A stretch of 64,000 nucleotides of DNA from the sequence record PZ540767.1, one strand, 5' to 3'. Both the position numbers and the translations under genes were made by a program. The notes beneath the pieces were generated by a model that worked only from the letters and a program-made list of their open reading frames with translations, did not search any database and was not told where the DNA came from. Below are positions 5,876 through 60,242 of the stretch, piece after piece. This stretch comes from a phage. Position 1 is the first letter of the stretch, and the number at the start of each line of letters is the position of its first letter.

Positions 5876-5878
5876 ATT

Positions 5879-5968: not shown

Positions 5969-5974
5969 TAAATT

Positions 5975-6061: not shown

Positions 6062-6066
6062 GAATT

Positions 6067-6143: not shown

Positions 6144-6209
6144 TAATTAGCCCTCTACTGTCGCCATCCAGTAATCCAGTTGGAATCGAACCAACACAGA
6201 GGGGTTATT

Positions 6210-18516: not shown

Positions 18517-18560
18517 TGAGGTTACAATCTGGGTACTCCACAATACTAAGGAATACTCAG

Positions 18561-21500
18561 ATGGCTGGTAACTCATCTCCTCTGGACAAGTTTCTTGTCC
18601 CACAACAGGTAACAGGTCAGGAAGCTGCTCAGGCACTTCCTGCACCTACCCAACCAACTATCGCCCAGCGTGTGAATGATGCTTCTACTCGTATCCTGAA
18701 TAACCTCACAGGACAGGGTATGTATCCTACAGAAGAAGGCGAGATTGCTCGACTCAAACGAATTAATAACGAACAGTCGGCATATGCTAAAGAAGTAGCT
18801 GCAAAAGATTCAGATTACGGTTGGTCTTCTACCAACTTCTTAGATCCTGAAACGTCTTCATTGACTGATCGTACAGCTTCTACCTTTGTTAACTATGGCA
18901 AAGCTCTTACTGATGCTGTTAATGGTCTTGCAGGCAAAACAGATAAGACTTTCAAAACACTGGGTAATGTGCTGGATCAGGCTTCTATTCCTAACGATGC
19001 ACTGGATGCTTATCGTCGTGTGCAAGCTGGTAAAGGCACCGAAGCTGATAATGCCCTGTTAGATCGTCAGGGTGCCTGGTGGACACAGCCTATTGAAGTA
19101 AATCAATATGGTGTACCAGAGATGGGTAACCAGACTCTTCGTCAACGTCTGGATGCTATCAACGAACGTCAGAAAACCCAAAACCAGAGTAGCTATGACA
19201 ATCTTGAGAAACTAGCTAACCCTGTTCAAATGCAGCAAGCTGCTGCTGATATTGAGAAATCAATTGAAGGTAAATCAGGACTTGATAAATTTGCTGCTGG
19301 TTTAGCTGCTATTGCTCGTAACCCTGGTGCTGCTGGTCAGACTATGGTGGAGTCTGCTCCATACATGGTTGGTGGTATCCCGGGTATGCTTGCTTCCTCT
19401 GCTATGCAGGGTGGCTCAGTATTGTCTCAGTATCTGGATACCCAACGTAAAGCTTCTGATGGTCAGATCCCTACAGCTAAAGATGTAGCTATCGGTACTG
19501 GTTTGGGTGTTGTTGATGGTGCTCTGAACTTTGCAGAAAGTATCATTAACCGTACTGCTATGCTTCCAGGATCTAAAGTATTACCTGCCGGAGTTGCTGA
19601 TCGTCTGGTGAACGCAGCACAGCGCATCGCACCACGCAGCTCTACGGCTGCTGCTGCTCTTGCGCGTGTGACTGCTCCTACCCTTGACCTTGCTAAGAAT
19701 GCCTTAACTGAAGGTCTGGTATCTGGTGCTCAAAACCAGATTGAGGAGAACTATGCGAAGGGTAAAAATGAATGGGATACCAAAGGTAATGATGTTGCTT
19801 TCTTCCAGGGGATTGCTGCTGCTACTGGTTTTGGTGCTCCTCGTGCTGCACTTAGTACTGCTGGTGAAGTAGCTAATACTGCTGCTCAGGCTATGCAGAA
19901 ACGTACTGAAGCACAAGATCCTGTAGGCCAAGCTGCTCGTAATACCACCCCAGAAGACTTAATGAATCCACAGTCAGAAGGATATAACCCAGCTGCTGCA
20001 ATTCGTCGTGCTGGTATGGAGTGGACTCGTAACACTGATGCTACTACTGATGAACAAAAGGCTGAGATTCAATCTCAGGCTCAGTCAGCTATGGATGCTG
20101 CACAGAATGATCACCAGAATAACCTGGATATGATTAACCAGAGGGCTACTGCTGAACGTACTCTTGCTGACGCTGGTAAGTTTATTCCTGCTATTCAGGA
20201 GAGACTGGATCAACTTAGTAATGATCCTAATGCAGATCCTGATGCTGTTAATCAGTTACAAACCATTCTGGCTCAACAGACTGAAGCTCGTGATGCTGCA
20301 CAGCAACAACTGGATGCTATGCCTTCTCAGGAGGAACTGGCACAGTCTGCTACCCGTTCTGCTGAAGTACTGGATCAGGCTAAGTCTGAGTTTGGTAAGT
20401 TCTCGTCAGCTACTGGTATGAATACCAATACAGCTAAACCAGAGAACCCAACAGCTTCTGACATTATCAGCCACCCAATGTCTTATACCAATGAAGACCT
20501 GCAAGAGTTTGTGCGTAATGCTCCTGCTAATGCTACCCCTGCTGAATTGGGTACGCTTCGTGCATTAGCTGATGCCAAAGTTGCAGAGAATGCTGTTAAG
20601 ACTGGTTCTAAGGTTAATAGTGAGATCTTCAAATCCACTTCTAATAACCTGTCACTGGGTGATTACCAACAGGGTATTAACACTGCTGTACAAGCTGGTG
20701 ATACTAACCGTATCCAATCCCTGATGACTGGTATCAACAACTTTGAAACTTCCCATACTGCTAAAGCAGATATTGCTCAACAGTACCTTAATGAAGCTAA
20801 ACAGAATGGTAAGTCTTACCAGATCCTGAAAACTTCTAATGGCTGGGAGTTAAATACTGGCAAACGTCTGGATGCTAAAGCACAGGCTAAGAATGGTGGC
20901 TTTACTATCCACAAAGGCTCTACTGGTCTGGTTAACAATATTGTTAATGAGGCCAAAGCTATTACAGCCACTCGTCAGTATATGGAAGGCATTGCTACCC
21001 CATCTACTAACCAGAATGTGACTGGCTCGACTGAGCAAGTAGCAAGCCCGGAGGCGCAGCCCGAGGGTGCAGCTACTGTAGCAGGAGAGACAGGAGCACA
21101 AGAACAACAAGCACAACCAACAATCAGCCCACTGACCACACGAGATATTCGTGCAATGGATCAGGCAACGCTGGAAAAGGTTATGGCTACTACTCAGCAG
21201 GCTATGTCTTCTGACACTAATCCTGTACTGGCTCGTAACCTGGATGCACTTGACCGTGAGTGGACTCGCCGTGCTGATGTGGCTACTAACCAGAATCGTG
21301 GTGTTGATGCTCCTCACCGTAAACTGGATGACTCCTTTAAGCCTAAAGCTCAGGAGAATGAGATCCAGCGTTCACAGGCTGAGACTACTACTCAAACTGA
21401 GCACACCCAGGCTGACATTGACAATGAGTCTACTGGTTCAGAATCTCAACAAACTGCCCCAGTTAACGTAGATGATGTTGTTACCAACACTGATACTTTG

Positions 21501-24500
21501 ACTGAGACTCAACAAGATAATGTAGCTCATGGTGCTCTGAGTATCTTTGGTAAAGTTGGTGAGTCCCTGAAAGCTCTGCGTGAGAAAGCTTTGGCTGAAC
21601 CTAAAGGCTTACAGAACCTTGTGCTTACTGGTTTCAACCAGCGAGTTCGTCCAGGTTTTGGTAGCCCACTGGTAGCAGTGAAAGACTTTATCAATACTCT
21701 GAAAACTGCTGTGGATACTGGTAGCTTCACTGAAGTTAACCGTTTCCTGAAACAGCATATCAGTGAGTCGAAAGCTGAAGGTGCTAAACAGAAAGCTCTG
21801 CTGAAACAGTTTGTGGAATTCCATGATCACATCACAGCTAACCTGGATAACATCATCCGTACTAAAGCCCCTGAGTATCGTTATCAGGACTTTGCTCAGT
21901 TTATCTTGGATGAGAATGGTAACTTTGACTCCAATACTAAAACTGGTATTGCAGCAGGTATCTTCTCCTGGCTTGGTGAGAATGGGGATAAGATGTTCCT
22001 GAACCAGAGTGAAGTAGCTAAAACTCTGCGTATCAAAGAAGATCAGTTAACTCCACAAGCCATGTCTCGTATGGCTGATATTGGCTATCGCCAAGACTTG
22101 ATCATGTCCCAACTTGGTCAACGTATTTATCAGGCTATGGGCTTTGCTAAACGTGCTGACGTTGATCCTAACCGTGCCAGCAAATTGCAGAATGCTCTGG
22201 GTGCTTATGCTCTCCATGCCATGTATTCCAATGGCTATATGGAACAGTCTTTAATGACTGCTAAAGAGTACTTCGATCTGCAAACCATGGGTCTGGATGA
22301 ACAATCAGCTAAAGAAGCTGCACAAGCTTTCCAGAATGACTTTGGTGTTTCCCCTAACGATGCCAAGCACAAGATTGTGTTTAGCCGTCCTGCACGTAAC
22401 TTTGATGCAGAAGGTAAACCAGTAGCTATTGAAGCTATCTCTGACATTAAGAATGGAATGAAAGATACCCGTTCTCTCATGTCTAAGCTGTTCGGTTATG
22501 ATCCTGCTGTACGTGAGGTTCTGACCACTAAGCCTGCTGGTTTCAAACAGAAAGTCTTCGGTAAAATGAATCGTGAAGTTCCTTCTGTTTTGGCTGCTCG
22601 TATCAGCAAAGCAATGCAATATGACTACACCATTGATCAGGGTGTAGTGAATGCTATGCGTACTATGTCCACTGTAGATAATGCTGCTCTGCAACATATC
22701 TTTGGTGTACGTACTGATGCTGATGTGCCCAATGAAATGGAGATCTTCAAGAAAGGACGTGAAGCCAAGAATGCTGATATCCAACGTTCTATGGAAATGG
22801 GTTTAGACTTTGCTAACCGTAGGGGTACTAACCCATTCTGGATGCCTATGGAAGTCTGGACTAACCAACGTATTGGTGATCTGGCTTCAGAGTTCAACCC
22901 ACAGGGTTCCAAAGTACACCGTGCTATGGGTGGCTTGAGTGCTCACCAGGTAGAGATTTCTGTAGCCCGTAATGCTCCTGTGCTGGACGCAGATGGTAAG
23001 CCTACTCAGTATGGCCTGTTCCTTGTATCCCTGGCTCAGGGTATGGAAGAAGCTCCTGTAATTGGTGCTGATGGTAAGAAACTGAAGTCTGTTGATAAGC
23101 AGACCTATGCTACCTTCTTACCTGCTTTCCAGAATTACCTGCGTAAACCAGAGAACATTAAGGCTGTACGTGCTATGCAGAAAGTGATCGCTGGTTCAGC
23201 TACTACTGCTGATACCAACGTCATTAAGAATGCTGTGGCTGAGTATGGTATGAATGGTCAGTCTTTTGCTGCCCTGCATAACCTGGCTCAGTATGCTACT
23301 GCTCTGGAATCTGGTAAGTCTTCTGTTAAGCTGCTGGCTCAAATGGAATCGGACGGTGTTACTAACGGCCCTATCCTGACTAACATCCTGAATGGCTCTG
23401 CTGACTTCGATCTACTGAAGCGTGGTGGTATTTATCGTGAAGGTGACAATATTACCAACATGCCTACTTATCGTGAGTTGGGTGGTCAGGATTACTACGA
23501 GCTGCTGGGTGATGCTATGCGTCAGCATTGGGCTGATTACAAAACCAATGCACCTGCTAGTCAGCAAGGTCAGATTCAGGCTCTGGAATATTTCTCTACT
23601 GGTTATGGTGCTCGTTCTAAGGCCAAGACTCTGGCTACCCCATTCAACTACTCTGCTGGTATTCCAGCACTGAAAGCTGCTATGGGCCGAGCTACTGTAG
23701 AGGATGTTTACTCTAAGATTGGTTCCCTGATCCCACTGGCTAAAAGCAATAACAAAGCAGACTTTGCCAAGGCTTATGCTGAGGTGAGTAAAAACCTTTC
23801 TGTACTCCTGGGTCAGAAAGTAAATCTGCCACGTACTGCTGATGGTCTGGTTAAGTTCAGCCTTAACCCGGCTCAAACTAAACGCATCATTGATGTGGAT
23901 TCTCAGACTCGCGGTGTTGCTACAGAGACTGCTGTTAATGAGGTTGCTGCTGACTTCATTGCATCTCGTGATGCTAATACCAGTCTGGTTAACACAACCT
24001 TTACCCTGGCTAACCTTCGCTACAATGCTGCTAAAGCTGCACTGCTGAAGAAGCGTATTGCTGAGGGTAAAATCCCTGTGGATGCTAAAGGTGCTCCATT
24101 GGAAGGACTCACTCAGGCAGATCTGGATAAGCTATCCCGCATGATTCCTAACATGCCTTCTGCAACTGGTGTTCTGTCTGAGAATACCAAAGCTTCTGGT
24201 TACCCAATGGCTAAGGTGGAGAAAGCTTTTACTGCTAAGTCTCCTGCCACCAGCATTGATATCTACTTCAAAGAAGCTGCTAACCCTAAACCAGCAATGG
24301 ATGCTAATGGGATGCTGCTGAGTCAAGGTCTGGTAGGTGGATACAAATCTACCCAGTCTACTGTGACTGAGACTAAGCTGACTAACCCTGGTGTTGCTAT
24401 GGGTGCTAACGTTACTCAGGGTACTGATGCTGCAATCAGCTCTGATGTAATCAGCAAGATCGAAAGCCAGAACGTGCATGATGCTAACATCCTGTCTCCT

Positions 24501-27500
24501 GACAATGTGCTGAAAGGTGCTCGTATCCAGAACAAAGCTATGTTTGATGCTGTGGTTTCTTATCATCCTCAACATCTGGCTGCTTCTGCACTGCTGACTG
24601 AAGTTCGTAGTCTGGCTGGTGCTAACCTGTCTACCAACGACAAGGTTGCAGCGAAGAAAGCTCTGGAAGCCATGAAGACTAAGATCCTGGGTAAAGACTT
24701 CAAGGGCAACATGAAAGCTGCTCTGAACACTATCCTTAACCAGGCATATGATCGTGACATTAAGAAACTGGAGACTCTCTCTGAAGTCTATGCTGTTAAC
24801 CAGTATGGTACTGAGGGGGGTGAATACCTGATCACTGATACTGATCGTAAGAAAATTGGTGATGAGATTGCACGTCTGAAACGTAGTCGTGCTGCTGGCT
24901 TACAACGTATCTCTGCTATGTTCTCTAAGGGTAATGCCCCAAAGGCTGAGGCCAACCAGTATCCTGATAAGATGAGACAATACCTGTATGAGGCTTCGGC
25001 CTCTACAGGCTCTGTGTCAGCTTCTGAGGTGATGGCTCGTACCAAAGGTAAGTTTGCTAACCCAGTATATAACGAACTCCACAATCTCATTTCTGGTTTG
25101 ATTCCAGCTGATGCTGTGGTGAACGTACTGGATGGGCAGACTATGCCTAAGAATGTTAAGGGGCAGTCACTGCCCCAGAACCGTGATGCCATTGCATGGT
25201 CTTATCAAGATAAAAACACTGCACAGGTTAACCTGTCACTCAGCAAAGAGGCTTCACCTGAAGTCTTGCTGCATGAACTGACTCACATTGCTCTGGGACG
25301 TGCAATTGCTACTGCTGATTCAAATCCAAAAGTAAAAGCTGTACTGGCCCGTACAGAGAAGCTAATGGGTAGAGTGACCAAGCTGGTTTCAGCTGATCCT
25401 CAATTGACTCAGAAGTTTGCCCCTGCTTTGGCTAACGTGGATGAATTTATCTCCTGGGGTATGACTAACCCAGAATTCCAACGTTACCTTGATACCATCA
25501 CTGGTGTGCCTGAAATCTCAGGTCGTAACCGTGGATGGTTGGGTACTGCCTTTAAACAGTTTGTGGATCAAATGTCAGGCATCTTTGCTGCTGTAACTGG
25601 TCGAGCTATTAATGCTCGGGTTACTACTGCTCTGGAAGCTCTGACCTTCGATACTGCACATCTGGTTCAGGCTATTAATCCTACTGCTATTGAGAGTCCT
25701 GTATCTTCTATCAGCCACCCTATGAGCAACACTAACAGTGCTGCTGATCAGGTAGCTAAGTTTAGCCATGTGGATATCTTTGATAACCTGGCTTCAACAG
25801 GTGGCAAGACTAACTCAGCACAGTTCACAGGTAACCTCCGTAATGTAATATCCACTGTGGCGGATCAGCTTTACGGTGCTTTAGGCTCCAGAGTCACCCA
25901 GAATGCCAATGAGAATTATACTCCTGGTCAAGTCTGGAATGAGGCTGTAGCCACTGGGAAAGCCCCTGTCAGCACCGAAGCACTGAGCAATGGGTTTGTA
26001 CTGACTAATCAGGAAGCCTTTGCTGTGGAGGCCATTGAGGCTGCTGTATCTGAATCTCTGGCTTCTGGTTTCACTTCACCAGTTAACCGGGAGATTCGTC
26101 GTACTTGGCAAGCTGCTAAACAATCCCTGAAACCAGAAGACTTCCATAATGGAAACTGGAATCAGGCAACTCAAGCAGAAAAACGAGCTGCTCAACAGAA
26201 ATGGAATTATCTGTTTGATGTAACGAATGACTCTGGTGAGTCCCAGCATCTGTCTCGTTTCGTTGCTATGGCTATTGGGCATGAAGACACCAGTAACTTA
26301 CTTGGCTTCCAGATGGAAGATGGTAAGGACTCTGGTAATACTGCCTTTGAACAGGCTACTGCTTACTTTAACCAGGCTGTTAATACAGTCTCTGGCATGT
26401 TGACCAATACCCATCAAGGACAAGCTGCAAATGCTCGTGCTCAAGCACTAGCTGAAAAGCTGATCCAGATTGAACTTAAGAACCGTGATACCACCATGAA
26501 TATTCTTACTGGTGGGATCGACAAAGTAGAGAATGCCTTAGATACGGCTGCTGCTAAGTCTAAACAGTTCCTGGGTAAAATCGTTAAAGCTACTGGTATT
26601 GATCAGTCCTCCAACAATGCTCTGAATGCTATGGGCAAAGTTGCAGGATTGGCTGCTCGTGATCAGCTGGGTAGCCTGAAAGAAACTATTAAAGAGTTCC
26701 GGGACTTTAATGCCCCTAGTACTCCAGAAGGTTCTCTGGCTTCCATTCTGACTGAAGCAACGAATGCTGATGATGTTCGTGCTCTGCATGAATCTCTGTT
26801 ACGTTCTACTAAACGTATTGAACAGGATCGTGCAACCTTAGCTGCTGTTACTGCTAAGAACTTAAATGAGATGTTTGATAACAATGGTCAAGACCTGACT
26901 AAAGAAGATCGTACAGCAATGACTTACTCACTGCTTCGTACTGATCTTCAGTCTGTGTTGCACATTGAAGGTATGAACCTGAATAACTTACATAAACTGG
27001 TTTCTAATACTGGTTATCGTAAGCAGCAGATCAATAACCTTGAGAAAACCATTAGCCAGTATGCTAACGGTAATGATAAGATCATTCGTGCCAAGGCTCT
27101 GGGATTCTGGATGGCTACTGGCAGAAATACCCTGGGACGTGATTTAGTTCTGAATGCAAAAGCTATTGCTACCGGAGCTGCTACTCACTATTCCACAGTA
27201 GGTATCGAACCGACTCTTGATGAAGTGAACGCCATTGATGCTCTGGCTTCAATGTACGCTCTAAGCTACACCAAGACCGAAAACCGTGTTCGCACTGCTG
27301 CTGTAATGGAACGTGAGCTTGCACGAGGTAAAGACAATGGCATTAAAATGCTGATGGCTACTTATGCGAACCTGATTGAGGATTCTGCTAATACGCTGTT
27401 TGCTGGTAACCAGTTGTCTCGCATTAAAGGCTATTTGCCTGAAGATACCAATCCTCATCATGACTTACGTGCGGTTGAGTCGGGGAGTGCAGATGAAGCA

Positions 27501-29198
27501 GCACTGGTGAACATGGGATACCAAAAAGTATCCCCACTGTCCCAGGACTCTTTGTCAAAACACTCTGGACGTGTACTGTATGTGACCAAAGAGAATGGGT
27601 ATCAACGAACCGTCTCTGGTACTTTCAGTTTAACTGGAAGCCAGCGTAAAGGTTCTTCCCTAAGTGGGGATCGTGCTGTTGCTGATCGTGTTCGAGCTGA
27701 CGAGTTAGAACAGTTAAGGCAAGCGTCCTATGCAGACGTGCGAGGGCGTGAAGCACTGTCCCACACTGCCTTTGATCCTACTCAGATCCAGGATAACCAT
27801 GTAGTGCCTGTATTAAGCACTGATGGTCATATCATGGACTTCCGTTACATGGCTACCCACAATACTCGTGACACGTTCCTTGATCGTAATAATGACTTTG
27901 CTGACCTTGTTGGTCGTCTGGCTGGTCAGAATATCGATAAGGGTGATGCCCCAAGCCAGAATGCTAAGATCCTGGAAGCTCTGCATGAAGACTCTAAGGC
28001 TAATATCCTGAAGAATCCTAATGCTTACTTTGAGATTGGGCCTAATGCACCTACTGAGCGAGGACGTGAGATCTGGGCAATGATGCCTTATGAAGCACGT
28101 ACTAAAGCTACTTCTCTGTGGGGTGCTGATCGTATGTATATTCGAAACGATCTGGTTAACCTTACTTTTGGCTTCCGTAAGTATTCACTGGCTAACATTT
28201 TTGATGTTGATCCAGAACAGCGTAATATTGCTCAGGGTGTTGCTGCTGGTTTACTTGAAGCTGCTTTTGGTGATAAGGCTAAAGCTTATGTAATTAAGGG
28301 TGAGCGTGGCATTCAGGAATTTATGCAGTCCTATAAGGACGTGATCGTTATTCGTAACCTGAAAACCCAGTTCAGTAATATTATGTCTAATACTGCTCTA
28401 CTGGCTGCTTATGGCGTTAACCCGGTACGTATGGTTAAAGATATCCGTACTGCTCTGGTTGCTGGGATTGACTACCGTAAACAGTACTCGCTGCTACTCA
28501 AGTATCAGCAACAGCAACGTGCTGGTATTGGTAACTTTGCTCAGATGGAGTCCCTGATCAATGAGACGCAGGATCGCTTGAATGCTAACCCTCTGGCTAA
28601 GTTTATTCAGGCAGGTATGATGCCTACCATCGTAGAAGACGTTCAGCCTGATGCTGATGGTTACACTTATGGTTCTAAGATCCGTAAGAAATTTAATGAG
28701 GTATCTGCCCATCTGCCAGCTTCTGCTGTAACAGCTGCTCGCTGGGCTGTGATTGATAAAGGTACTGCACCTCATAAATTCTTAAGTGATGCTGCTCAGT
28801 TCAGTGACTTTGCTGCTAAGTATGCTCTGTATAAGCACCTGACAGAACATGCCCGAGATCGCCTGAGTCATACTGAGGCTTTACAACGTGCATCTGATGC
28901 TTTTGTTAACTATGACATTCCAGCTACAGCTACTCGCCAATATCTGGATGATATGGGGATTACCATGTTTACGAAGTATCGTGTTCGTATCCAACGTGCA
29001 ATGTTCTACTTGATGGATAAACGTCCAGCATCTGTTATGGCACATATGGCAATTACAGGGCAGTTTACTCATGCACCTGATGCTATGGAGCCACTGTTTG
29101 CACGTAACTTAGGTAACCCATTCACACCTTCAGTATTGCAGGGTGGGAGTTTGTTGAATGTCCCAATGCCTTGGAACTTATTCAGAATGGCATACTAA
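18561..29198 (+). CDS. virion-packaged RNA polymerase (N4 vRNAP-like giant protein)
   Basis: Single uninterrupted ORF of about 3,550 aa; ATG at 18561 has an AAGGA RBS (first in-frame ATG at 18516 lacks one); followed by terminator. Confidence 0.85.
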   Translation: MAGNSSPLDKFLVPQQVTGQEAAQALPAPTQPTIAQRVNDASTRILNNLTGQGMYPTEEGEIARLKRINNEQSAYAKEVAAKDSDYGWSSTNFLDPETSSLTDRTASTFVNYGKALTDAVNGLAGKTDKTFKTLGNVLDQASIPNDALDAYRRVQAGKGTEADNALLDRQGAWWTQPIEVNQYGVPEMGNQTLRQRLDAINERQKTQNQSSYDNLEKLANPVQMQQAAADIEKSIEGKSGLDKFAAGLAAIARNPGAAGQTMVESAPYMVGGIPGMLASSAMQGGSVLSQYLDTQRKASDGQIPTAKDVAIGTGLGVVDGALNFAESIINRTAMLPGSKVLPAGVADRLVNAAQRIAPRSSTAAAALARVTAPTLDLAKNALTEGLVSGAQNQIEENYAKGKNEWDTKGNDVAFFQGIAAATGFGAPRAALSTAGEVANTAAQAMQKRTEAQDPVGQAARNTTPEDLMNPQSEGYNPAAAIRRAGMEWTRNTDATTDEQKAEIQSQAQSAMDAAQNDHQNNLDMINQRATAERTLADAGKFIPAIQERLDQLSNDPNADPDAVNQLQTILAQQTEARDAAQQQLDAMPSQEELAQSATRSAEVLDQAKSEFGKFSSATGMNTNTAKPENPTASDIISHPMSYTNEDLQEFVRNAPANATPAELGTLRALADAKVAENAVKTGSKVNSEIFKSTSNNLSLGDYQQGINTAVQAGDTNRIQSLMTGINNFETSHTAKADIAQQYLNEAKQNGKSYQILKTSNGWELNTGKRLDAKAQAKNGGFTIHKGSTGLVNNIVNEAKAITATRQYMEGIATPSTNQNVTGSTEQVASPEAQPEGAATVAGETGAQEQQAQPTISPLTTRDIRAMDQATLEKVMATTQQAMSSDTNPVLARNLDALDREWTRRADVATNQNRGVDAPHRKLDDSFKPKAQENEIQRSQAETTTQTEHTQADIDNESTGSESQQTAPVNVDDVVTNTDTLTETQQDNVAHGALSIFGKVGESLKALREKALAEPKGLQNLVLTGFNQRVRPGFGSPLVAVKDFINTLKTAVDTGSFTEVNRFLKQHISESKAEGAKQKALLKQFVEFHDHITANLDNIIRTKAPEYRYQDFAQFILDENGNFDSNTKTGIAAGIFSWLGENGDKMFLNQSEVAKTLRIKEDQLTPQAMSRMADIGYRQDLIMSQLGQRIYQAMGFAKRADVDPNRASKLQNALGAYALHAMYSNGYMEQSLMTAKEYFDLQTMGLDEQSAKEAAQAFQNDFGVSPNDAKHKIVFSRPARNFDAEGKPVAIEAISDIKNGMKDTRSLMSKLFGYDPAVREVLTTKPAGFKQKVFGKMNREVPSVLAARISKAMQYDYTIDQGVVNAMRTMSTVDNAALQHIFGVRTDADVPNEMEIFKKGREAKNADIQRSMEMGLDFANRRGTNPFWMPMEVWTNQRIGDLASEFNPQGSKVHRAMGGLSAHQVEISVARNAPVLDADGKPTQYGLFLVSLAQGMEEAPVIGADGKKLKSVDKQTYATFLPAFQNYLRKPENIKAVRAMQKVIAGSATTADTNVIKNAVAEYGMNGQSFAALHNLAQYATALESGKSSVKLLAQMESDGVTNGPILTNILNGSADFDLLKRGGIYREGDNITNMPTYRELGGQDYYELLGDAMRQHWADYKTNAPASQQGQIQALEYFSTGYGARSKAKTLATPFNYSAGIPALKAAMGRATVEDVYSKIGSLIPLAKSNNKADFAKAYAEVSKNLSVLLGQKVNLPRTADGLVKFSLNPAQTKRIIDVDSQTRGVATETAVNEVAADFIASRDANTSLVNTTFTLANLRYNAAKAALLKKRIAEGKIPVDAKGAPLEGLTQADLDKLSRMIPNMPSATGVLSENTKASGYPMAKVEKAFTAKSPATSIDIYFKEAANPKPAMDANGMLLSQGLVGGYKSTQSTVTETKLTNPGVAMGANVTQGTDAAISSDVISKIESQNVHDANILSPDNVLKGARIQNKAMFDAVVSYHPQHLAASALLTEVRSLAGANLSTNDKVAAKKALEAMKTKILGKDFKGNMKAALNTILNQAYDRDIKKLETLSEVYAVNQYGTEGGEYLITDTDRKKIGDEIARLKRSRAAGLQRISAMFSKGNAPKAEANQYPDKMRQYLYEASASTGSVSASEVMARTKGKFANPVYNELHNLISGLIPADAVVNVLDGQTMPKNVKGQSLPQNRDAIAWSYQDKNTAQVNLSLSKEASPEVLLHELTHIALGRAIATADSNPKVKAVLARTEKLMGRVTKLVSADPQLTQKFAPALANVDEFISWGMTNPEFQRYLDTITGVPEISGRNRGWLGTAFKQFVDQMSGIFAAVTGRAINARVTTALEALTFDTAHLVQAINPTAIESPVSSISHPMSNTNSAADQVAKFSHVDIFDNLASTGGKTNSAQFTGNLRNVISTVADQLYGALGSRVTQNANENYTPGQVWNEAVATGKAPVSTEALSNGFVLTNQEAFAVEAIEAAVSESLASGFTSPVNREIRRTWQAAKQSLKPEDFHNGNWNQATQAEKRAAQQKWNYLFDVTNDSGESQHLSRFVAMAIGHEDTSNLLGFQMEDGKDSGNTAFEQATAYFNQAVNTVSGMLTNTHQGQAANARAQALAEKLIQIELKNRDTTMNILTGGIDKVENALDTAAAKSKQFLGKIVKATGIDQSSNNALNAMGKVAGLAARDQLGSLKETIKEFRDFNAPSTPEGSLASILTEATNADDVRALHESLLRSTKRIEQDRATLAAVTAKNLNEMFDNNGQDLTKEDRTAMTYSLLRTDLQSVLHIEGMNLNNLHKLVSNTGYRKQQINNLEKTISQYANGNDKIIRAKALGFWMATGRNTLGRDLVLNAKAIATGAATHYSTVGIEPTLDEVNAIDALASMYALSYTKTENRVRTAAVMERELARGKDNGIKMLMATYANLIEDSANTLFAGNQLSRIKGYLPEDTNPHHDLRAVESGSADEAALVNMGYQKVSPLSQDSLSKHSGRVLYVTKENGYQRTVSGTFSLTGSQRKGSSLSGDRAVADRVRADELEQLRQASYADVRGREALSHTAFDPTQIQDNHVVPVLSTDGHIMDFRYMATHNTRDTFLDRNNDFADLVGRLAGQNIDKGDAPSQNAKILEALHEDSKANILKNPNAYFEIGPNAPTERGREIWAMMPYEARTKATSLWGADRMYIRNDLVNLTFGFRKYSLANIFDVDPEQRNIAQGVAAGLLEAAFGDKAKAYVIKGERGIQEFMQSYKDVIVIRNLKTQFSNIMSNTALLAAYGVNPVRMVKDIRTALVAGIDYRKQYSLLLKYQQQQRAGIGNFAQMESLINETQDRLNANPLAKFIQAGMMPTIVEDVQPDADGYTYGSKIRKKFNEVSAHLPASAVTAARWAVIDKGTAPHKFLSDAAQFSDFAAKYALYKHLTEHARDRLSHTEALQRASDAFVNYDIPATATRQYLDDMGITMFTKYRVRIQRAMFYLMDKRPASVMAHMAITGQFTHAPDAMEPLFARNLGNPFTPSVLQGGSLLNVPMPWNLFRMAY

Positions 29199-51803: not shown

Positions 51804-51827
51804 GAAAGAAAAGGGGCCGAAGCCCCT
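51804..51827 (-). terminator. rho-independent terminator
   Basis: AGGGGC-CGAA-GCCCCT hairpin with T-tract on the minus strand. Confidence 0.55.
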
Positions 51828-51832
51828 CGGTA

Positions 51833-53710
51833 CTACTTAAGCCAGGTTTTCAGTTCATCACTGACTTTCGGATCAAGTCCGAATGCTTTTGGCCCTTTCT
51901 TACGAGAGGACATGAAGAACTGGAGTTCCCCTGCTGCATCTTTGGTGTCAGCACGGTTACCTTTGGCTTTAGTCTCTTTGAAGACACGATACAGCTCTTG
52001 TGCCTGCTCTTTGACTGTCATAGCCTTACCTTCTGGTTTAGCTGGAGATTCAGCTTTTGTTTCAGGAGTAGTGACTTTGATATCACTGGCTTCACGAATG
52101 GACAGGATCAGCTCTGCATCTTCATCAGAGATGCCCAGTTTAGCCCAGCCTTTCTTAGCTTTCTGTTTGGCAGAGATTAATTCCTCTGCAAACTTCTGGG
52201 CAGTAGCCAGATCTTCAGCCAGATAAGCAGCTTCAAATTGCTCCCAAAGGAGGTCAATTTTAGTCTTCTTGATTTCAGGGGCAATAACTGGGGCAGGTTC
52301 TTTCAGATCAGCAGCCAACACTGGCGATACTTTTTCAGTAGGTGCTGCTTCTGACAGATCAGATTGTTCCAGTGTTTCCTTAACCAGATCTACTTTTACT
52401 TCTTCAGCTTTTGCTGTTTCAGTATTTTCGACCTTGGTATAGGTTACATTGCTGCCATTGTGACCACCCACTTCAACCAGTTCAGTAATGCCCACATGAG
52501 CACCACGCAGAACTTTGTTCAGCAGCTCTTTACCCTCTGGGATAGAAGAAATAGAGCCACCACTGTTAACGTGGTTACGCAGCGATTCAGGCAGTACAGC
52601 AAGGATGTGGTAACCACATACACGCATTTTAGTGCGGCTGTATTCTGGTACAGCAAAGACGTCTTCAGGACGTACTTTAGCCATCACAGTGACGTTACCA
52701 GGGAAGCTGCTGAGATAGCCCAGGGAAGCTACATGGAGGCCATTAGAGCAGTCCTGACGGCGGTTAGGATCTACCAGACCTGGTTTCATGAAGACATAGG
52801 AACCCACATTCTGTTTGATGTTCCCGGAATGAACATCCACGAAAGTTCCATGCTTCTCTTTGAGACGTTTGTAGATAACGATACAGCCGTCATCTGCAAT
52901 AGGAAGATCACCATGTTCGATGAACTTCATCAGGTCTTCAGCAGAGTGACCACGATCTTTCAGAACAGGTTCCAGACGGTTCAGGAAGTTTACGAAGCCA
53001 CGGAAATCCTTCAGCTTACTTGCTGCTTTCATCTGAGATGATAGCTTGTGAGCATGAGGAATCACACTACCTGTCTTGGTGTTGACTGCCACAATGGTAT
53101 CAGGATCTTCATCCGTGATAGGTTTGTGGAAATCAGGATCATCAACAGTACTACCTTTGCCTGCAAGCTCGCGCATACGGGCTGTAGCCAGATCGATTTT
53201 CTGATCATTGGTGAGTTCTGCTGGTTTGGTTACCTCATTTGCAGGGGCTTCAACTACTTCTTTCAATGCTTCTAGGGCTTCTTCTGCTTCTACTGCCGCA
53301 GATGGAGCTTCCAAAGCATAAGTGAGGTCATCAGCTTCCTCTACATCCAGAATGGTCTGGCCTGGCTTGATACCCAGTTCCAGTGGCGAGATGTGAGCAA
53401 CACTCTCATCCACCTTTTCAGGGGATTCAGTGTCGATGAACTTTTTGACGAAACTTTTGGCAACACGGAAGAACTTGATAAGTCCCCCAGTGCCTTCTTC
53501 AGTTTCTTTGAACTCATTGCGTACCTTGATAGGTTCTGCAATGTCTACAACCGCAGAGCCATCCACAGGGATGTACTTTTTGGCTGTTTCGACGATGTTC
53601 GGCAAACGAGGATCACCCTGTGCAATGGTCACAGTACTGCCATCCTCTAAATAGAGGACAGCATTCTGAGCATCGACAGAGATTCCTACGATGGTCACTA
53701 GTTTTTTCAT
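51833..53710 (-). CDS. rIIB: rIIB-like protein
   Basis: 625 aa; start overlaps stop of rIIA-like gene (ATGA); assignment by position and pairing, no diagnostic motif recognised. Confidence 0.45.
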   Translation of the reverse strand: MKKLVTIVGISVDAQNAVLYLEDGSTVTIAQGDPRLPNIVETAKKYIPVDGSAVVDIAEPIKVRNEFKETEEGTGGLIKFFRVAKSFVKKFIDTESPEKVDESVAHISPLELGIKPGQTILDVEEADDLTYALEAPSAAVEAEEALEALKEVVEAPANEVTKPAELTNDQKIDLATARMRELAGKGSTVDDPDFHKPITDEDPDTIVAVNTKTGSVIPHAHKLSSQMKAASKLKDFRGFVNFLNRLEPVLKDRGHSAEDLMKFIEHGDLPIADDGCIVIYKRLKEKHGTFVDVHSGNIKQNVGSYVFMKPGLVDPNRRQDCSNGLHVASLGYLSSFPGNVTVMAKVRPEDVFAVPEYSRTKMRVCGYHILAVLPESLRNHVNSGGSISSIPEGKELLNKVLRGAHVGITELVEVGGHNGSNVTYTKVENTETAKAEEVKVDLVKETLEQSDLSEAAPTEKVSPVLAADLKEPAPVIAPEIKKTKIDLLWEQFEAAYLAEDLATAQKFAEELISAKQKAKKGWAKLGISDEDAELILSIREASDIKVTTPETKAESPAKPEGKAMTVKEQAQELYRVFKETKAKGNRADTKDAAGELQFFMSSRKKGPKAFGLDPKVSDELKTWLK

Positions 53711-56184
53711 GGTTTAGTTCCGTTTTTGAGTGCACTTAAAACGATGGTTTTCAGAGCAGAAGCTCGCTCTGGGTATTGAATGAGCCACTGAAGGACACTT
53801 CCGTCACCATGCCCAAGGGCACGTAACATAGGGTCTTTACGCAGCACTTTCAATTTCTTGATAAAGGGTAACTCTTCCAGCCTACCCCGCATGATGGTTT
53901 GGATAGGATCCCAGTTTTCATCTGCGTTGAGTTTCTCATACTCTTCTGGAGTATAAGCATAGACAGCCACCACAGACGGAGTAAGAGTGAGAATACGCTC
54001 AAAGTAAGGATCATACCGTAGTTTCTCTAAACCAGGCAGTTTAATGCCGAGTTTAGTACACAGCTTGATATCCTGAGATGAGATACGATGCTGAGTAGCC
54101 AAGGCTTTCTGGCGTTCTTTGGTAACATACTTTGCAAATGCTTTACTCAATACCACTTGTTTAACACGCGGTATAAAATAGGCATCTACATCGATAGCAC
54201 CACGGTTCTCAGCCATACGGCGTTCGATACCATTACGAACAACTACCCCATCAAACAAGTCCTCTGGTGTAGCATCCTTCAGATGAATAAAGCTTCCCAG
54301 CATACCCCCATGGATATCATCAATAGAGATGAAATACTTAGGGTTTTGGTTCACCTGGGTTGGCTCTTTACAGGCAGTAATTTCACCTTTAAGTTTCCAG
54401 TTACCGTTTTTCAGATAAGCAGAGACAGTACCCAGATTATTGCCTGGTTTTTCAGCTTTAATCTTGGCTTTTTTCTCACGCTTTTCCTTTGCTTCAAGGA
54501 TTTCTTGATAGGCAGGATCCCATTCTACACCTGGGGTTAGATCCACTACAGTAAACCCAAGCTTTTCCAGTTTTGCTGTGACAGCAGCAATCTCAGGAGC
54601 TTTAGCTCGTGGATCCACTTTCAGTGCCCATGCAGCATTGGAAGTTCCCTGAACATAACCCTTATATGCTGACTTACTCGCAGCAATACCTTTCAAACGG
54701 GAAGTAAGAAACACTACCTGGTTTTCAAGGTAAGTTACGATTTGAGTTCCTGAGAATGGAATACGACGCATAAAGCCATCGCTATAGACATTACGGCCCC
54801 ACCAGGTATTTTCCTGGGTACTAAAGCGTAAACTCTTAACCGAGATAAAATCAGCCCCAGCAATACCTCGCATAATACGTTTGATAGTATGTTTGCGAAG
54901 GAATGCATAGATAGCTTCACGGGTTCTGTGAGTGCCATATGTGGTAGCTTTACGTAAATCCCACAGAGCCTGGTTAGCATATAGCCATTCTGGATTAGTA
55001 AACTGGTATAACTTTTTGAAGCCAACATGTTCGGCTTCTTTGAGTTCTTTCCAGTACTTCATACGAATAGAGGATCCCAGGTTACTACCAAGATAGCGTT
55101 TAACTACGTTAGGTTGGATTTCCTCCAGAATGTTGGCAGTACTGCCAATAGCAGGTTGTCCCTTATAAAACTTACCTTCACGCATACGCTTGCAAGTAGC
55201 AGCAATAGAAGAAGGAATCTGAGCAATGATATCCTTTTCCATGGTTGCAACTAATTGCACACAGAGATCGGTAAGACCATCTTCAGTCAGTTTCTGACTG
55301 GAGAGGGCTTCACGAGCTGGGGTTAATGCCAGAGTATCAGGGGCTGCTTGAACCAGCAGACGTTGAATACCAACGATCTCCATAAACTCTGAGAGCATTC
55401 CAGTGGCTTTGCTGGTGGCTTCTGTAAACAGCATTGGGTAGATGACAGCACCATAACGCACAAAGATTCTGTGGTTACCCATGTACTTGTTGTACCAGAC
55501 TTCATCATCTGTATTCCATGAACCAGGCTCCTGGGACATACCCAGTTTAGCCATAGGCTCAAATTCGCCACCCATCCAACTGAGTTCTGCATTCATTTCA
55601 CCATGCATAACCAGATACTTCAGGTAGGTATGAGCTGTCTGGGCCTGATCCAGGGTTAAACGAAAGCTGACAGTTAAACCAGAGCGGGTAGTAGGGACGC
55701 TAACCATAGGTGTAATACCTGGTTTGCCCCGGTTCTCTACTACTGAACGAGCCATGTTATAGACTGTCTTCGTTCCGTTGTGCTCAGAAGTCACACGGAA
55801 GGCATCCACAAGTGCCCATGGAGCTTTACTACCCAAACCAAAGCCACCGGTAGTCTTACTGTCGTTACGCTTGGTGGAAGCACCATAGGTGCCATAGATT
55901 TGGGCGATCTTCTCCGGGGGAATACCCAGACCGTTATCCTGAATGATCAGTTCACCATCAGTGGTGATGGAGATCTTCAGGGGTTGATCGGTAGTACCAG
56001 CTTCGATATTAGCATCCCATGCATTACACAGTGGCTCACGAATAGCTGCCAGCAGCTGGTTTGAATACAGGTTAGATGACAGCATCATCAGAAATGCAGC
56101 ATCCTCTACCATAGATACAGCGAGAGTTTCCCCAGCACCCAGAGAGGCAGAGGTCGATTTGTTTTGCATATCCGCAACTTGCAT
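53707..56184 (-). CDS. rIIA: rIIA-like protein with GHKL (histidine kinase-like) ATPase domain
   Basis: 825 aa; N-terminal EPLCNAWDA (N box), DNGLGI (G1) and GGFGLGSKA (G2) ATP-binding motifs; GAGGA RBS. Confidence 0.7.
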   Translation of the reverse strand: MQVADMQNKSTSASLGAGETLAVSMVEDAAFLMMLSSNLYSNQLLAAIREPLCNAWDANIEAGTTDQPLKISITTDGELIIQDNGLGIPPEKIAQIYGTYGASTKRNDSKTTGGFGLGSKAPWALVDAFRVTSEHNGTKTVYNMARSVVENRGKPGITPMVSVPTTRSGLTVSFRLTLDQAQTAHTYLKYLVMHGEMNAELSWMGGEFEPMAKLGMSQEPGSWNTDDEVWYNKYMGNHRIFVRYGAVIYPMLFTEATSKATGMLSEFMEIVGIQRLLVQAAPDTLALTPAREALSSQKLTEDGLTDLCVQLVATMEKDIIAQIPSSIAATCKRMREGKFYKGQPAIGSTANILEEIQPNVVKRYLGSNLGSSIRMKYWKELKEAEHVGFKKLYQFTNPEWLYANQALWDLRKATTYGTHRTREAIYAFLRKHTIKRIMRGIAGADFISVKSLRFSTQENTWWGRNVYSDGFMRRIPFSGTQIVTYLENQVVFLTSRLKGIAASKSAYKGYVQGTSNAAWALKVDPRAKAPEIAAVTAKLEKLGFTVVDLTPGVEWDPAYQEILEAKEKREKKAKIKAEKPGNNLGTVSAYLKNGNWKLKGEITACKEPTQVNQNPKYFISIDDIHGGMLGSFIHLKDATPEDLFDGVVVRNGIERRMAENRGAIDVDAYFIPRVKQVVLSKAFAKYVTKERQKALATQHRISSQDIKLCTKLGIKLPGLEKLRYDPYFERILTLTPSVVAVYAYTPEEYEKLNADENWDPIQTIMRGRLEELPFIKKLKVLRKDPMLRALGHGDGSVLQWLIQYPERASALKTIVLSALKNGTKP

Positions 56185-56223
56185 TTGAATATCCTCAAGT
56201 AAGATTTACTAAGACTTTTAATA

Positions 56224-56248
56224 AGAAAAAGCCAGAATAAATCTGGCT
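56224..56248 (-). terminator. rho-independent terminator
   Basis: AGCCAGA-ATAAA-TCTGGCT hairpin with T-tract on the minus strand. Confidence 0.5.
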
Positions 56249-56390
56249 TATTTGTTAGGCAGCTTGATTTAAGGCTTCAATACCTTGTGGTGTGAGGTGC
56301 CAGCCATACATCTGATTAAACTTGATAAGGCCAGCTTTAGCTAAAGCAGTCCCTGTACGGTTTTTATTAGAACGAGGGGCAGTACCAGAC

Positions 56391-56759
56391 TTAGCCATCT
56401 TGAGGAAGACGACTTGTTGCTTCGAGAGCGGCATTTCTTTTCCTTTCAAAACGTAGGTTTTTGAGTCCTCCCGGATAGCTATCAGCTATACGTCTGGCAA
56501 GACGATGGGAGATATTAAAGTGAGCTTCGGCCTGTTCCAGCGTGTGATCAAAGAGATAATCCAGGATTTTAATTCTGGTTTCATCTCTGATCTCTTTACG
56601 CAATTCAGAAAGTCCAAGCACCCTGATTGCAGAGTCTATTGAGTTAATAGATCTCCCCAAACAGACAGCAAGTCTTTTAATGGGCATACCTCGTAGGTAG
56701 TTATCAATCAGGAAGCTTTTTTCTTCTTTAGTCCATGGCCTCCTAATTGATGAGGCCAT
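56391..56759 (-). CDS. putative DNA-binding regulator (helix-turn-helix)
   Basis: 122 aa; WTKEEKSFLIDNYLRGMPIKRLAVCLGRSINSIDSAI resembles an HTH module; 3-prime end overlaps the uncertain ORF 56255..56449. Confidence 0.4.
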   Translation of the reverse strand: MASSIRRPWTKEEKSFLIDNYLRGMPIKRLAVCLGRSINSIDSAIRVLGLSELRKEIRDETRIKILDYLFDHTLEQAEAHFNISHRLARRIADSYPGGLKNLRFERKRNAALEATSRLPQDG

Positions 56760-57124
56760 TAGTCAGGCTCTTTAGGCAACTTGCTTGCCATAGCTTGCAG
56801 GGTGAATACAGCCATATCAGATGCCTGATCATCGCTGATTTCAGCTAAATCAAAGTCCCAGGATTCATCCCACTCTTCAGCGATTCGTTGAACTTCACCT
56901 AGACCGGCATTCACCATGTCTTTGGTAGGCTCTATCCAGAGCTTTTCCAACTGTTCAATACGATCCAGCAAGACTGTGATCATTGCTGGTGAAGTGAGTT
57001 CACGCCATTGACTGATAGCTGTAACACGCTCATCCAGTTTCATGGTTTGAGTACTCAATGCCTGTTCAGCTACTGGAAGCAGCTTACGAAGGTCATGCAT
57101 AACATCTTTGACTACTGGTTTCAT
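56759..57124 (-). CDS. hypothetical protein (121 aa)
   Basis: Acidic helical protein; translationally coupled to both neighbours. Confidence 0.45.
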   Translation of the reverse strand: MKPVVKDVMHDLRKLLPVAEQALSTQTMKLDERVTAISQWRELTSPAMITVLLDRIEQLEKLWIEPTKDMVNAGLGEVQRIAEEWDESWDFDLAEISDDQASDMAVFTLQAMASKLPKEPD

Positions 57125-57642
57125 ATGATTGATCCTTTGTTAACCCCAATGCTTTCCATCGTTTTACGACGTTTAAACATTGAGATTGCTTTTGCATGTT
57201 CTTTACGGAATTCTACGATTTGCTCTGAAGATACCGAAGTGGGTTCATCATGAGCTTTTAATCCTATTGACCTGATAGTTTCATGCATAGCTTCAGGCAG
57301 AAGGACAAAAAAGTCAGATAGACTGCCACTATTAGCTACGAGATCCCTCAGAAGGTATTCGTAGTAATTACCCTCAAGTTCTTCCATTTGACGTAACTGG
57401 TCATACCGTTCGTCAAAGGCTTCACATAATGAAGGGTGTAGTTGAACTACAGGGGCATCCTCTATTACGTAAGTTGGGTGATGCTCCCCATTTCTGGTGA
57501 AATACTTAGAACCTGTTAAAGCTGTGTGTTTAGGCACTATCTCTTCGAACACCCAAACTTTAAAGTCTGTTTTGGCTTTATCAAACATAGCCTGTTTGAA
57601 ACACCGACAAAAAAGATCCATTTCAGTGGTCTTAATTATCAT
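57121..57642 (-). CDS. hypothetical protein (about 173 aa)
   Basis: ATG at 57642 overlaps helicase stop (ATGA); ORF-track start at 57729 would overlap the helicase. Confidence 0.45.
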   Translation of the reverse strand: MIIKTTEMDLFCRCFKQAMFDKAKTDFKVWVFEEIVPKHTALTGSKYFTRNGEHHPTYVIEDAPVVQLHPSLCEAFDERYDQLRQMEELEGNYYEYLLRDLVANSGSLSDFFVLLPEAMHETIRSIGLKAHDEPTSVSSEQIVEFRKEHAKAISMFKRRKTMESIGVNKGSII

Positions 57643-59036
57643 GGTATATCCCCCGTAAGTACTACCTGCAAACGAGCACGAGAAATAGCTACGTAGAGCA
57701 GGCGACGAAGCTGATCGATATCCCGGCAACGATTGAGGTCACCCAAGTCCACATAGACACGACGGAAGGTGGAACCTTGTGCTTTATGGATAGTGCATCC
57801 GAACACTGGACGTAGATCGATCCAGGTACTTTTAACCTTATCCAAGGCATTTTTGATTGCGGTGAACTCTTCTGGGTTTTCTGCGAAAACCATTCCCTGA
57901 AGCTTCTTGGAGTAACGTCTTAACAGCTTATCTTTGGCCTTTTTATCATTAGGCATAAAATAAGCTTGAACTTTCTCACCTGATTTAAAATCCTTTGAAC
58001 CTTTACGGTTACGGTCGGTATAAACCCAGTGCCCTTCTTCCCCCAACTGTTTACCTCGTTCTAAACCAGTAAGGTAAACGAGACGGTCTGTGCCAATAGC
58101 AGGTAGGACATTCTTAATGCCCCCTACATAGCTGTTACAGATCGCATAGTCACCTTCTCTGAGCGTCTGAGAGCCAGTAACCTGAGAATAAATCTTATGG
58201 TTTACTTCGTTCACACGCTTGTTGGTAAAGGCCAGGAATTTGCTGGTGGAGTATTCCCATTCATCACGGGACATATCCCTGATCATCCCTGCTTCGAACT
58301 TACTACGTTCTACCCAGATGATGTTCTTACCGTCCACATTACATGGAGGAGTAGGGCCACCTTCAAGCACCCATTGACGAAGACGCTTAGATAACGCCTG
58401 TACAGGGTTATCGTCAGACTGTCTCATGATCTGGGTTAACTCGACCATGGGGAAGCGTCCTTCTTCGAATACAGGCAAGTCACCTTCAGCAGTCTTACAT
58501 TGGGCTTTGTCACCCATGAAGATTACTTTGGTGCCTTTACCCAGCTTCATATAGATATGCTCTAACAAGGTCATATCGATGTAGCTGGCTTCATCAACAA
58601 AGACGAAGGTATTCCACAGCAATTCATCTGGTTTATGGGATACGAGAACATCCTTATAAGTCTTAGGATCTTCTTCCATACCCAACCGAAGCAAGCTATG
58701 GATCGTCTTTGCAGTACAACCCATAGCATGTTCGAAGGCTTCAGCAGCCTTATTGGTGGTAGCTGTGAATTCGACGCGGGGATTACGCTGTACTTTAATC
58801 CCCAGTGCTTCCATCGTCTTTTGTACTTTTTCCAGATGTTCAAGCACATACTTAATGACGGTGGTTTTCCCTGTACCAGCAGCACCAGATAAGACCATTA
58901 CCTGATTACTGTTGAATATCATGGGATCTTCATCCCCCTTAAAGCGGGGGACATAGATATCATGAGGTTGATGTTTGTTAAGCAGAAAGTCCGTGATGAA
59001 CTCACAGGCTTTCTGTTGACCTTGGGATAGCTGCAT
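57639..59036 (-). CDS. Dda/RecD-like superfamily 1 DNA helicase
   Basis: 465 aa; Walker A SGAAGTGKTT, C-terminal CTIHKAQGSTF motif typical of RecD/Dda-type helicases; AGGAG RBS. Confidence 0.8.
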   Translation of the reverse strand: MQLSQGQQKACEFITDFLLNKHQPHDIYVPRFKGDEDPMIFNSNQVMVLSGAAGTGKTTVIKYVLEHLEKVQKTMEALGIKVQRNPRVEFTATTNKAAEAFEHAMGCTAKTIHSLLRLGMEEDPKTYKDVLVSHKPDELLWNTFVFVDEASYIDMTLLEHIYMKLGKGTKVIFMGDKAQCKTAEGDLPVFEEGRFPMVELTQIMRQSDDNPVQALSKRLRQWVLEGGPTPPCNVDGKNIIWVERSKFEAGMIRDMSRDEWEYSTSKFLAFTNKRVNEVNHKIYSQVTGSQTLREGDYAICNSYVGGIKNVLPAIGTDRLVYLTGLERGKQLGEEGHWVYTDRNRKGSKDFKSGEKVQAYFMPNDKKAKDKLLRRYSKKLQGMVFAENPEEFTAIKNALDKVKSTWIDLRPVFGCTIHKAQGSTFRRVYVDLGDLNRCRDIDQLRRLLYVAISRARLQVVLTGDIP

Positions 59037-59060: not shown

Positions 59061-60242
59061 CTATACAAGCCCTTCCATTGTAAAGTGAACCACTTTGCCA
59101 AATTTTGGTACAAAGTTGGGGTTATCATAAACGAACCAGATTACAGGACGTTTAGGATCTACCAGATTGTGCTGGCTGAGGTAACCATCAGTCAGGATAA
59201 ACATCCCCAGTGATGCTTTATCACGGGCGAAGTCTTCGATGGTACTGTCGATGCAAGTACCGCCACCACCACTGAATTTAACATTGAGCAGATCACGTAC
59301 TGTACATATACGAGAGATATCCTTGATATCAGTATCAAACTGATACAGCTTTATCTCGTCTGGTTTAAACAGTTTCAGTACCTGATAAACACCACCTAAG
59401 AAGATGGTGAACTCTTTCTTGCCAATGGAACCAGATACGTCAATAGCCCATGAAATACGTCCCAGGGACTTACCACGGCGTTCTGGAGCAGTGATATCGT
59501 GTACCAGCATACGACGACGAAGACGTGACCATGTACGGCCAGGCTTACGTGTGACCTTCTCACAGAAGATCTTCAGATAGTGCTGCCAAGGAATTGGAGG
59601 ATTCAGGAGATCCTCAATACGGCGAGCCATATCCTTAGTACCACGCCCAAACTGTTTACCAGTCTGGTTTGCCTCAGCCATTTCAGCTGCCATGTTAGCA
59701 CCCAGTAAGATGCTATCAATTTGCTGCTTCTGGCTATCCTGTTCTTCTTGGGTCAGGGACTGTTTATTGAAATCAGGCATAGGGTTTTTACCCTTGTGAG
59801 TGCCTGGTTTCTTAGCCTCTTCCTGTTGAAGAATCCGGTATACCTGCATGGTGGTCATACCATCAAAGCGGGAGTCTACCAATACCTTAATAGTTGTAGG
59901 CATTGGCATTCCAGACTTTTTCAATTCCAGGTTGATTACATAGTCACCAGCCTGGTTCCACAGATCTTCATCCAGATCGGCAGGGAAAGTAGTGCAGTGT
60001 TCATGCACAATATGCCCAACTTCATGAGCCACCACAAAAGGGTGTTCAGCAGGTTTGAGCATCTCCATGAATTTCTGGTTGTAATACACGGTTAAAGAAT
60101 CCGTGTAAGCAGAATCACAAGGGTGCCCAGCGGGCACTTCCTTATGTTTTAATCTGAGGATCATTGAAGCCCAGAACACATACTTCTCATCCAAAGCCAG
60201 GGTAGTAAAGGCTTTGTCGAGGATCTTCTCAAGTGGTGACAT
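59061..60242 (-). CDS. metallopeptidase-motif protein with probable VWA-like C-terminal domain
   Basis: 393 aa; HExxH-type motif AHEVGHIVHEH in N-terminal half; adjacent to AAA+ ATPase; AAGGAA RBS. Confidence 0.5.
   Translation of the reverse strand: MSPLEKILDKAFTTLALDEKYVFWASMILRLKHKEVPAGHPCDSAYTDSLTVYYNQKFMEMLKPAEHPFVVAHEVGHIVHEHCTTFPADLDEDLWNQAGDYVINLELKKSGMPMPTTIKVLVDSRFDGMTTMQVYRILQQEEAKKPGTHKGKNPMPDFNKQSLTQEEQDSQKQQIDSILLGANMAAEMAEANQTGKQFGRGTKDMARRIEDLLNPPIPWQHYLKIFCEKVTRKPGRTWSRLRRRMLVHDITAPERRGKSLGRISWAIDVSGSIGKKEFTIFLGGVYQVLKLFKPDEIKLYQFDTDIKDISRICTVRDLLNVKFSGGGGTCIDSTIEDFARDKASLGMFILTDGYLSQHNLVDPKRPVIWFVYDNPNFVPKFGKVVHFTMEGLV

Follow-up and report, generated by a model that had tools for sequence, protein, structure and literature searches.

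The stretch of phage DNA analysed here, referred to below as the window (64,000 nucleotides of sequence record PZ540767.1), carries two adjacent genes on its minus strand, rIIA and rIIB, which together span positions 51,833 to 56,184 and probably constitute a counter-defence module against Rex-like abortive infection. The pair is already known: it is annotated in published genomes that are about 93% identical in this region, and its orthologues in phage N4 have been tested experimentally. Counter-defence is favoured over a role in lysis inhibition or in DNA topology because of the published N4 knockdown results, transposon data from phage T4, and the silence on rII of the available text describing a screen for rapid-lysis mutants. 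The label "lysis inhibitor", which both genes receive in databases, thus misleads in the case of N4-like phages, for which an anti-Rex function is best supported at present.

The rIIA-like gene (53707..56184, minus strand) encodes 825 amino acids and is orthologous to N4 gp33, and the rIIB-like gene (51833..53710, minus strand) encodes 625 amino acids and is orthologous to N4 gp34. These open reading frames (ORFs) are not a product of chance, since rIIA matches the PHROG family 2979 "RIIA" with an E-value of 4.6e-185, rIIB matches PHROG 2886 "RIIB" with an E-value of 9.5e-165 (residues 1-536), and DNA-level matches to the region occur in 184 phage records. Over their full 4,352 bp, both genes share 92.6-93% DNA identity with those of the Klebsiella phages cp20, vB_KpP_FBKp27, Tribble_ER49, and P184. 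An initial annotation, made from the letters of the sequence, had proposed that the two genes are rIIA and rIIB, and the comparison with T4 bears this out. BLASTP gives an E-value of 2e-16 for rIIA (34% identity over 134 residues, covering rIIA residues 15-137, that is, the GHKL domain only) and of 7e-17 for rIIB (31%, residues 246-378 against T4 179-312), and a profile built from 60 N4-type rIIB sequences aligns residues 240-374 to T4 rIIB 177-309 with a probability of 98.5% in hhalign. Against N4, rIIA aligns over its full length with gp33 (841 amino acids, 35% identity, E-value 2e-141), and rIIB aligns with gp34 (696 amino acids) at 43% identity over residues 156-539 (E-value 2e-97) and at 41% in the first 116 residues. 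rIIA lies directly upstream of rIIB in the same orientation, as the membership of such a pair would require, and shares 97.7% of its amino acids with the RIIA of Klebsiella phage Tribble_ER49. Neither protein corresponds to a known defence protein, given that the PADLOC search returned only weak GHKL-fold matches for rIIA (TmtA, a type II restriction endonuclease) and none for rIIB.

The evidence on function comes from the orthologues. Knockdown of N4 RIIA or RIIB by CRISPRi-ART lowers the efficiency of plating only on Escherichia coli carrying lambda RexAB, and the same approach found rII to be needed on RexAB hosts and dispensable otherwise in N4, T4, MM02, EdH4, and SUSP1 (PMC11879866). In T4, the HIDEN-SEQ transposon data revealed depletion of rIIA/B insertions only when RexAB was present. 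The initial annotation had linked the rII proteins both to lysis inhibition and to the escape from prophage-encoded exclusion. The second role stands on the anti-Rex data obtained for N4, whereas the first goes back to a historical T4 label, and the available text of a preprint on rapid lysis in N4 is silent on rII.

If the name were taken literally, rIIA and rIIB would form a true lysis-inhibition system, delaying the triggering of the holin and raising the burst size. This is what the name "lysis inhibitor", given to both families by PHROG and RefSeq, conveys; N4 does display lysis inhibition, and the T4 rII mutants were first isolated as rapid-lysis plaque types. However, we hold this explanation to be improbable. 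According to the preprint, the more than 60 rapid-lysis mutants of N4 map to the pinholin gp63, the SAR endolysin gp61, the vRNAP gp50, the DTR, and scattered singletons; in the portion of its text that is available, neither rII nor gp33 or gp34 is mentioned, and its authors state there that the T4 proteins of lysis inhibition are not conserved in N4. Moreover, knockdown of rII in N4 is without effect when Rex is absent (PMC11879866), and even in T4 the plaque phenotype of rII mutants varies from host to host, with lysis inhibition being near normal in some of them.

In the counter-defence mechanism that we propose, rIIA would act as a GHKL-type ATPase and rIIB as its obligate partner. The two proteins, most likely assembled in a complex, would block a Rex-like abortive infection system, whether prophage- or host-borne, from collapsing the infected cell, and the outcome would be a phage able to grow on hosts with such systems. 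The rII proteins of T4 are associated with the membrane. For the phage studied here, we infer the hydrolysis of ATP by rIIA, the physical complex between both proteins, their membrane association, and the same role in Klebsiella.

Several points weigh against this proposal. The literature offers no molecular mechanism for rII in any phage (PMC11879866, PMC10312443), and the proteins described here share only 35-43% identity with the N4 proteins that were tested. The evidence for Rex dependence concerns RexAB, and not Rex-like systems of Klebsiella hosts, and PDB searches returned no solved structural relative of the rIIB core that could hint at a biochemical activity. Finally, the neighbours of rIIA and rIIB are replication genes, and not other anti-defence genes. 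The biochemical activity of rII is in any case a question for the whole rII family, and not particular to this locus.

The ATPase assignment of rIIA is based on a predicted GHKL (Bergerat-fold) ATP-binding domain at residues 44-161 (55702..56055, minus strand), where both Pfam models lie above their cut-offs: HATPase_c_3 with an E-value of 4.9e-10 and 40 bits (cut-off 25), and HATPase_c with an E-value of 3.4e-07 and 31.1 bits (cut-off 26.4). The N, G1, and G2 motifs that had been read in the 825-residue protein are all present on the minus strand: the N box E50-PLCN54-AWD57 (E50-x3-N54-x2-D57; residues 50-57, nucleotides 56014-56037), G1 as D83-NGLG87 (D83-x-G-x-G87; residues 83-87, nucleotides 55924-55938), and G2 as G113-GFGLG118 (residues 113-118, nucleotides 55831-55848). 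In the BLASTP alignment, these motifs line up with those of T4 rIIA. Profile and tblastn matches to other rIIA proteins extend to about residue 400, including a match to PHROG 612 (E-value 6.3e-52) over residues 14-382, and the C-terminal half of rIIA shows no detectable sequence similarity to T4 rIIA.

The same domain is the origin of another explanation, in which rIIA would be a topoisomerase- or MutL-like GHKL ATPase acting on DNA, with rIIB as an accessory subunit, within the replication module. The pair is indeed flanked by a Dda-like helicase block and the DNA polymerase gene; subunit B of TopoVI is the top solved-structure and NCBIfam match of the rIIA ATPase domain, its ATPase domains being the closest solved-structure relatives by sequence (E-value 1.4e-4); and rIIA has a weak PHROG match to a topoisomerase II large subunit. 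Nevertheless, the likeness is limited to the generic ATP-binding fold (residues ~43-191), the NCBIfam TopoVI-B score of 37 bits is far below the cut-off of 274, and Pfam and NCBIfam scans of both proteins returned no Toprim, cleavage, or DNA-binding domain. A core role in replication would also fit poorly with the knockdown of rII being neutral in Rex-free cells for N4, T4, and others (PMC11879866). We therefore regard an action on DNA as very improbable.

Regarding rIIB, the initial annotation had called this protein oversized next to a T4 rIIB of roughly 300 residues. This figure was close to the actual 312 amino acids of T4 rIIB, and in comparison with it the 625-residue protein is indeed long and not of T4-like length. 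In contrast, it is not oversized among N4-type proteins: N4 gp34 has 696 amino acids, Klebsiella phage KP8 rIIB has 678, and among 360 N4-type homologues the median length is 617 (range 503-795). A length of 625 amino acids is thus typical of N4-type rIIB, and long only beside T4, and the N4-type genomes examined here typically show the N4-type architecture, long rIIB included. Homologues that are 93-98% identical are found on contigs of about 75 kb, and uncultured relatives carry the 625-residue form at 96-98%. Length is not a defining trait of the rIIB family at all, since the structural matches named rIIB among viral models range from 147 to 1049 amino acids, and the best 150 of the 7,000 representatives of 50%-identity clusters retrieved with the rIIB core (E-value <= 1e-3, among 1.84 billion) range from 305 to 759 amino acids, with the core usually lying mid-protein. 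This core is common to 2,900 phage records.

The domain anatomy of rIIB was examined on an AlphaFold2 model (mean pLDDT 79.6) computed from an alignment of 60 sequences. An N4-type-specific N-terminal domain (residues 1-95, 53426..53710, minus strand) is modelled with a pLDDT of 85-93 and is occupied in 99% of the alignment; it pairs with residues 3-114 of N4 gp34 and does not align to T4 rIIB. An Ala/Glu-rich linker of variable length follows (residues 96-160, 53231..53425, minus strand), which is predicted to be disordered (mostly pLDDT below 50, 54% occupancy), with a short predicted helix at residues 141-151 inside it. Residues ~165-430 are modelled as a confident alpha/beta core region, followed by a second linker. 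Within this region lies the universal rIIB core domain (residues 240-374, 52589..52993, minus strand), delimited by the BLASTP and hhalign comparisons with T4 rIIB. Its invariant residues include H254, D258, D273, K280, D291, R316, C320-S-x-G-L-H325, K344, P347-E-D349, K360, and R362, and conservation is highest here, with a mean identity of 54% versus 23-38% elsewhere. The protein ends with two C-terminal helical modules (residues 483-542 and 565-623, 51842..52264, minus strand; pLDDT 86-96), neither of which is present in T4 rIIB. A KKxxKKSWxxLG-type motif occurs twice in the family consensus of these modules. An internal repeat was also considered and rejected in this sequence, with a pairwise score of 27 against a shuffle mean of 26.8, which is not significant.

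Regarding its fold, the rIIB model had no match in the PDB at an E-value <= 1e-3 in Foldseek, and the sequence search against the PDB returned only chance matches to transthyretin (E-value ~0.35). Among the viral models of BFVD there were 28 matches at an E-value <= 1e-3; several are unnamed, and all that bear a functional name, except for one "transposase", belong to the rIIB type (RIIB, rII protector, or lysis inhibitor). On the basis of this model, the rIIB core appears to be a fold without a solved relative. The partner of rIIA therefore resembles T4 rIIB, and no enzyme-like fold was found in it, as opposed to the distinct enzymatic fold that would have spoken against the initial annotation. 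The local Pfam scan gave nothing significant for rIIB (Lum_binding, E-value 0.055; RNA_replicase_B, E-value 0.17), and the NCBIfam scan returned no families. Precomputed matches to PF26926 exist for rIIB homologues, and that model is absent from the local Pfam results for rIIB. Two homologues, P0122 (689 amino acids) and P0123 (678 amino acids), have a precomputed match to PF00542, the C-terminal domain of ribosomal protein L7/L12, and one of the two bears the JGI label "ribosomal protein L7/L12". There may be a resemblance between L7/L12 and the Ala/Glu/Lys-rich linker of N4-type rIIB, or a genuine L12-like insert in some lineages.

An rIIB made of a universal core of ~135 residues and lineage-specific modules bears on how rII works, and this modular layout also matters for engineering the host range of therapeutic Klebsiella phages. 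The rIIB gene of an N4-like Pseudomonas phage has been described as a recombination hotspot in host-range expansion (PMC6466182). It is conceivable, though rather unlikely, that the N4-type additions, namely the ~95-residue N-terminal domain and the two C-terminal helical modules, set the specificity for abortive-infection systems other than RexAB in Klebsiella. The opposite role for rIIB would be that of a liability, with the N4-type protein in Klebsiella mainly setting off host immune systems that sense it, and not acting as a protector. The precedent is the RIIB of phage T6, which alone activates a CARD/gasdermin defence from Lysobacter, and whose inactivation allows mutants to escape (PMC10312443). 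This activation is nevertheless compatible with counter-defence, since the same work shows a trade-off with RexAB; it has been demonstrated for T-even rIIB only, which shares just the core of ~135 residues with the protein described here; and rIIB is kept in every N4-type genome examined here. We thus give a mainly detrimental rIIB only a remote chance of being correct.

Returning to the arrangement of the two genes, the proposed overlap between the stop of the 825-residue protein and the start of its 625-residue partner was found at the junction as ATGA (53707..53710, minus strand), where the TGA stop codon of rIIA and the ATG start codon of rIIB share nucleotides. Upstream of rIIB, reading the junction by eye disclosed no obvious Shine-Dalgarno-like sequence. 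The location of the rIIB start inside the rIIA stop codon, together with the absence of an obvious ribosome-binding sequence of its own, suggests that the translation of rIIB is coupled to that of rIIA. In front of rIIA, a Shine-Dalgarno-like GAGGA (56192..56196, minus strand), likewise read from the sequence, lies 7 nucleotides 5' of the ATG. Further upstream, between the preceding gene and rIIA, a terminator-like hairpin with a T-run (56229..56249, minus strand) matches the position of a terminator annotated in FBKp27. A second, GC-rich terminator-like hairpin, GAGGGGCTTCGGCCCCTT, also with a T-run (51811..51828, minus strand), is situated 4 nucleotides 3' of the rIIB stop, before the DNA polymerase gene. 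With one such hairpin on either side, the pair forms a bicistronic operon. A scan for sigma-70 promoters found 5 sites, fewer than the 6.7 found in shuffled sequences, and says little about how the genes are transcribed. The middle genes of N4-like phages are transcribed by a phage RNA polymerase.

The window was typed as an N4-like Klebsiella phage (Schitoviridae, Efbeekayvirus), with ~93% nucleotide identity to FBKp27, cp20, and P184 in the rII region. This family is confirmed by an ORF of 3,560 amino acids (18516-29198, plus strand) that matches the N4-type virion RNA polymerase (phrog_2206, E-value 0), a hallmark of N4-like phages. The rII genes are placed inside the DNA-replication block, with the Dda-like helicase block on one side and the DNA polymerase on the other. 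A comparison of positions 56255-59036 with N4 revealed that the helicase (57639-59036) and four small ORFs precede the pair, which directly abuts the DNA polymerase gene. One ORF in this area (57121-57729, minus strand; 202 amino acids, TTG start, no PHROG match) shares 91 nucleotides with the 3' end of the helicase gene. Its true start probably lies further downstream, since its counterpart in FBKp27 is annotated as a shorter protein of 173 amino acids. Also in the replication block, a gene for an HNH endonuclease of 393 amino acids (59061-60242, minus strand; phrog_1314, E-value 2.2e-93) is encoded between the helicase and an ATPase gene, and is annotated likewise in FBKp27. Elsewhere in the window, five tRNA genes (Gln-TTG, Ser-TGA, Tyr-GTA, Pro-TGG, and Asn-GTT) are clustered within ~490 bp (5799-6284, minus strand).

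Among known systems, the closest is that of FBKp27, in which RefSeq names gp42 "RIIA lysis inhibitor" and gp41 "RIIB lysis inhibitor"; both genes carry RIIA/RIIB annotations in cp20 and P184 as well. Both phages share the order of small ORFs, terminator, rIIA, rIIB, and DNA polymerase, as well as the 4-nucleotide overlap between the rII genes. The rIIB proteins of FBKp27, cp20, P184, and Tribble_ER49 are ~93-94% identical to the one described here; in FBKp27, P184, and cp20 they have 616 amino acids instead of 625, with the 9 extra residues of our protein lying in the disordered Ala/Glu-rich linker.

Compared with N4, the similarity between the pairs is collinear over the full length, with gp33 and gp34 also being adjacent and co-oriented, at 35% identity for rIIA and 41-43% for rIIB. 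N4 gp34 has the same layout of N-terminal domain, linker, core, and C-terminal helical region, and is 71 residues longer than the rIIB described here, with a longer linker region. The junction and the surroundings differ: the two annotated rII coding sequences of N4 share a single base, in contrast to the overlap of 4 nucleotides found here, and the N4 order is rIIA-rIIB-gp35-gp36-helicase-gp38-polymerase, which places the pair upstream of the helicase, whereas here the helicase block precedes the pair and the polymerase follows it.

Phages encoding rIIA and rIIB as a single polypeptide represent a further arrangement. These fusions, of ~1,050 amino acids, are found in some myoviruses, and one is also annotated in Escherichia phage FL20. 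The profile phrog_609 (1055 positions) is of this RIIA-RIIB type and matches both the N-terminus of rIIA and the core of rIIB, and the "RIIA-RIIB" protein of phage RB43 (Q56C47, 1049 amino acids) is a structural match of the rIIB model. Where the fusions produce one polypeptide, the phage studied here has two genes that would be translationally coupled, and the existence of natural fusions points, by the Rosetta-stone argument, to rIIA and rIIB working as one unit or complex.

In T4, the two genes are likewise adjacent, with rIIA followed by rIIB. The GHKL domain of T4 rIIA (725 amino acids) follows the same motif logic as the one described here, including GGFGLGSK, and the core of T4 rIIB shares the CSxGLH motif. 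However, T4 rIIB stops right after the core and has neither the N4-type N-terminal domain nor the C-terminal extension of ~250 residues, which leaves only ~135 residues of our rIIB to which it can be aligned. On RexAB hosts, the T4 and N4 orthologues have a common phenotype.

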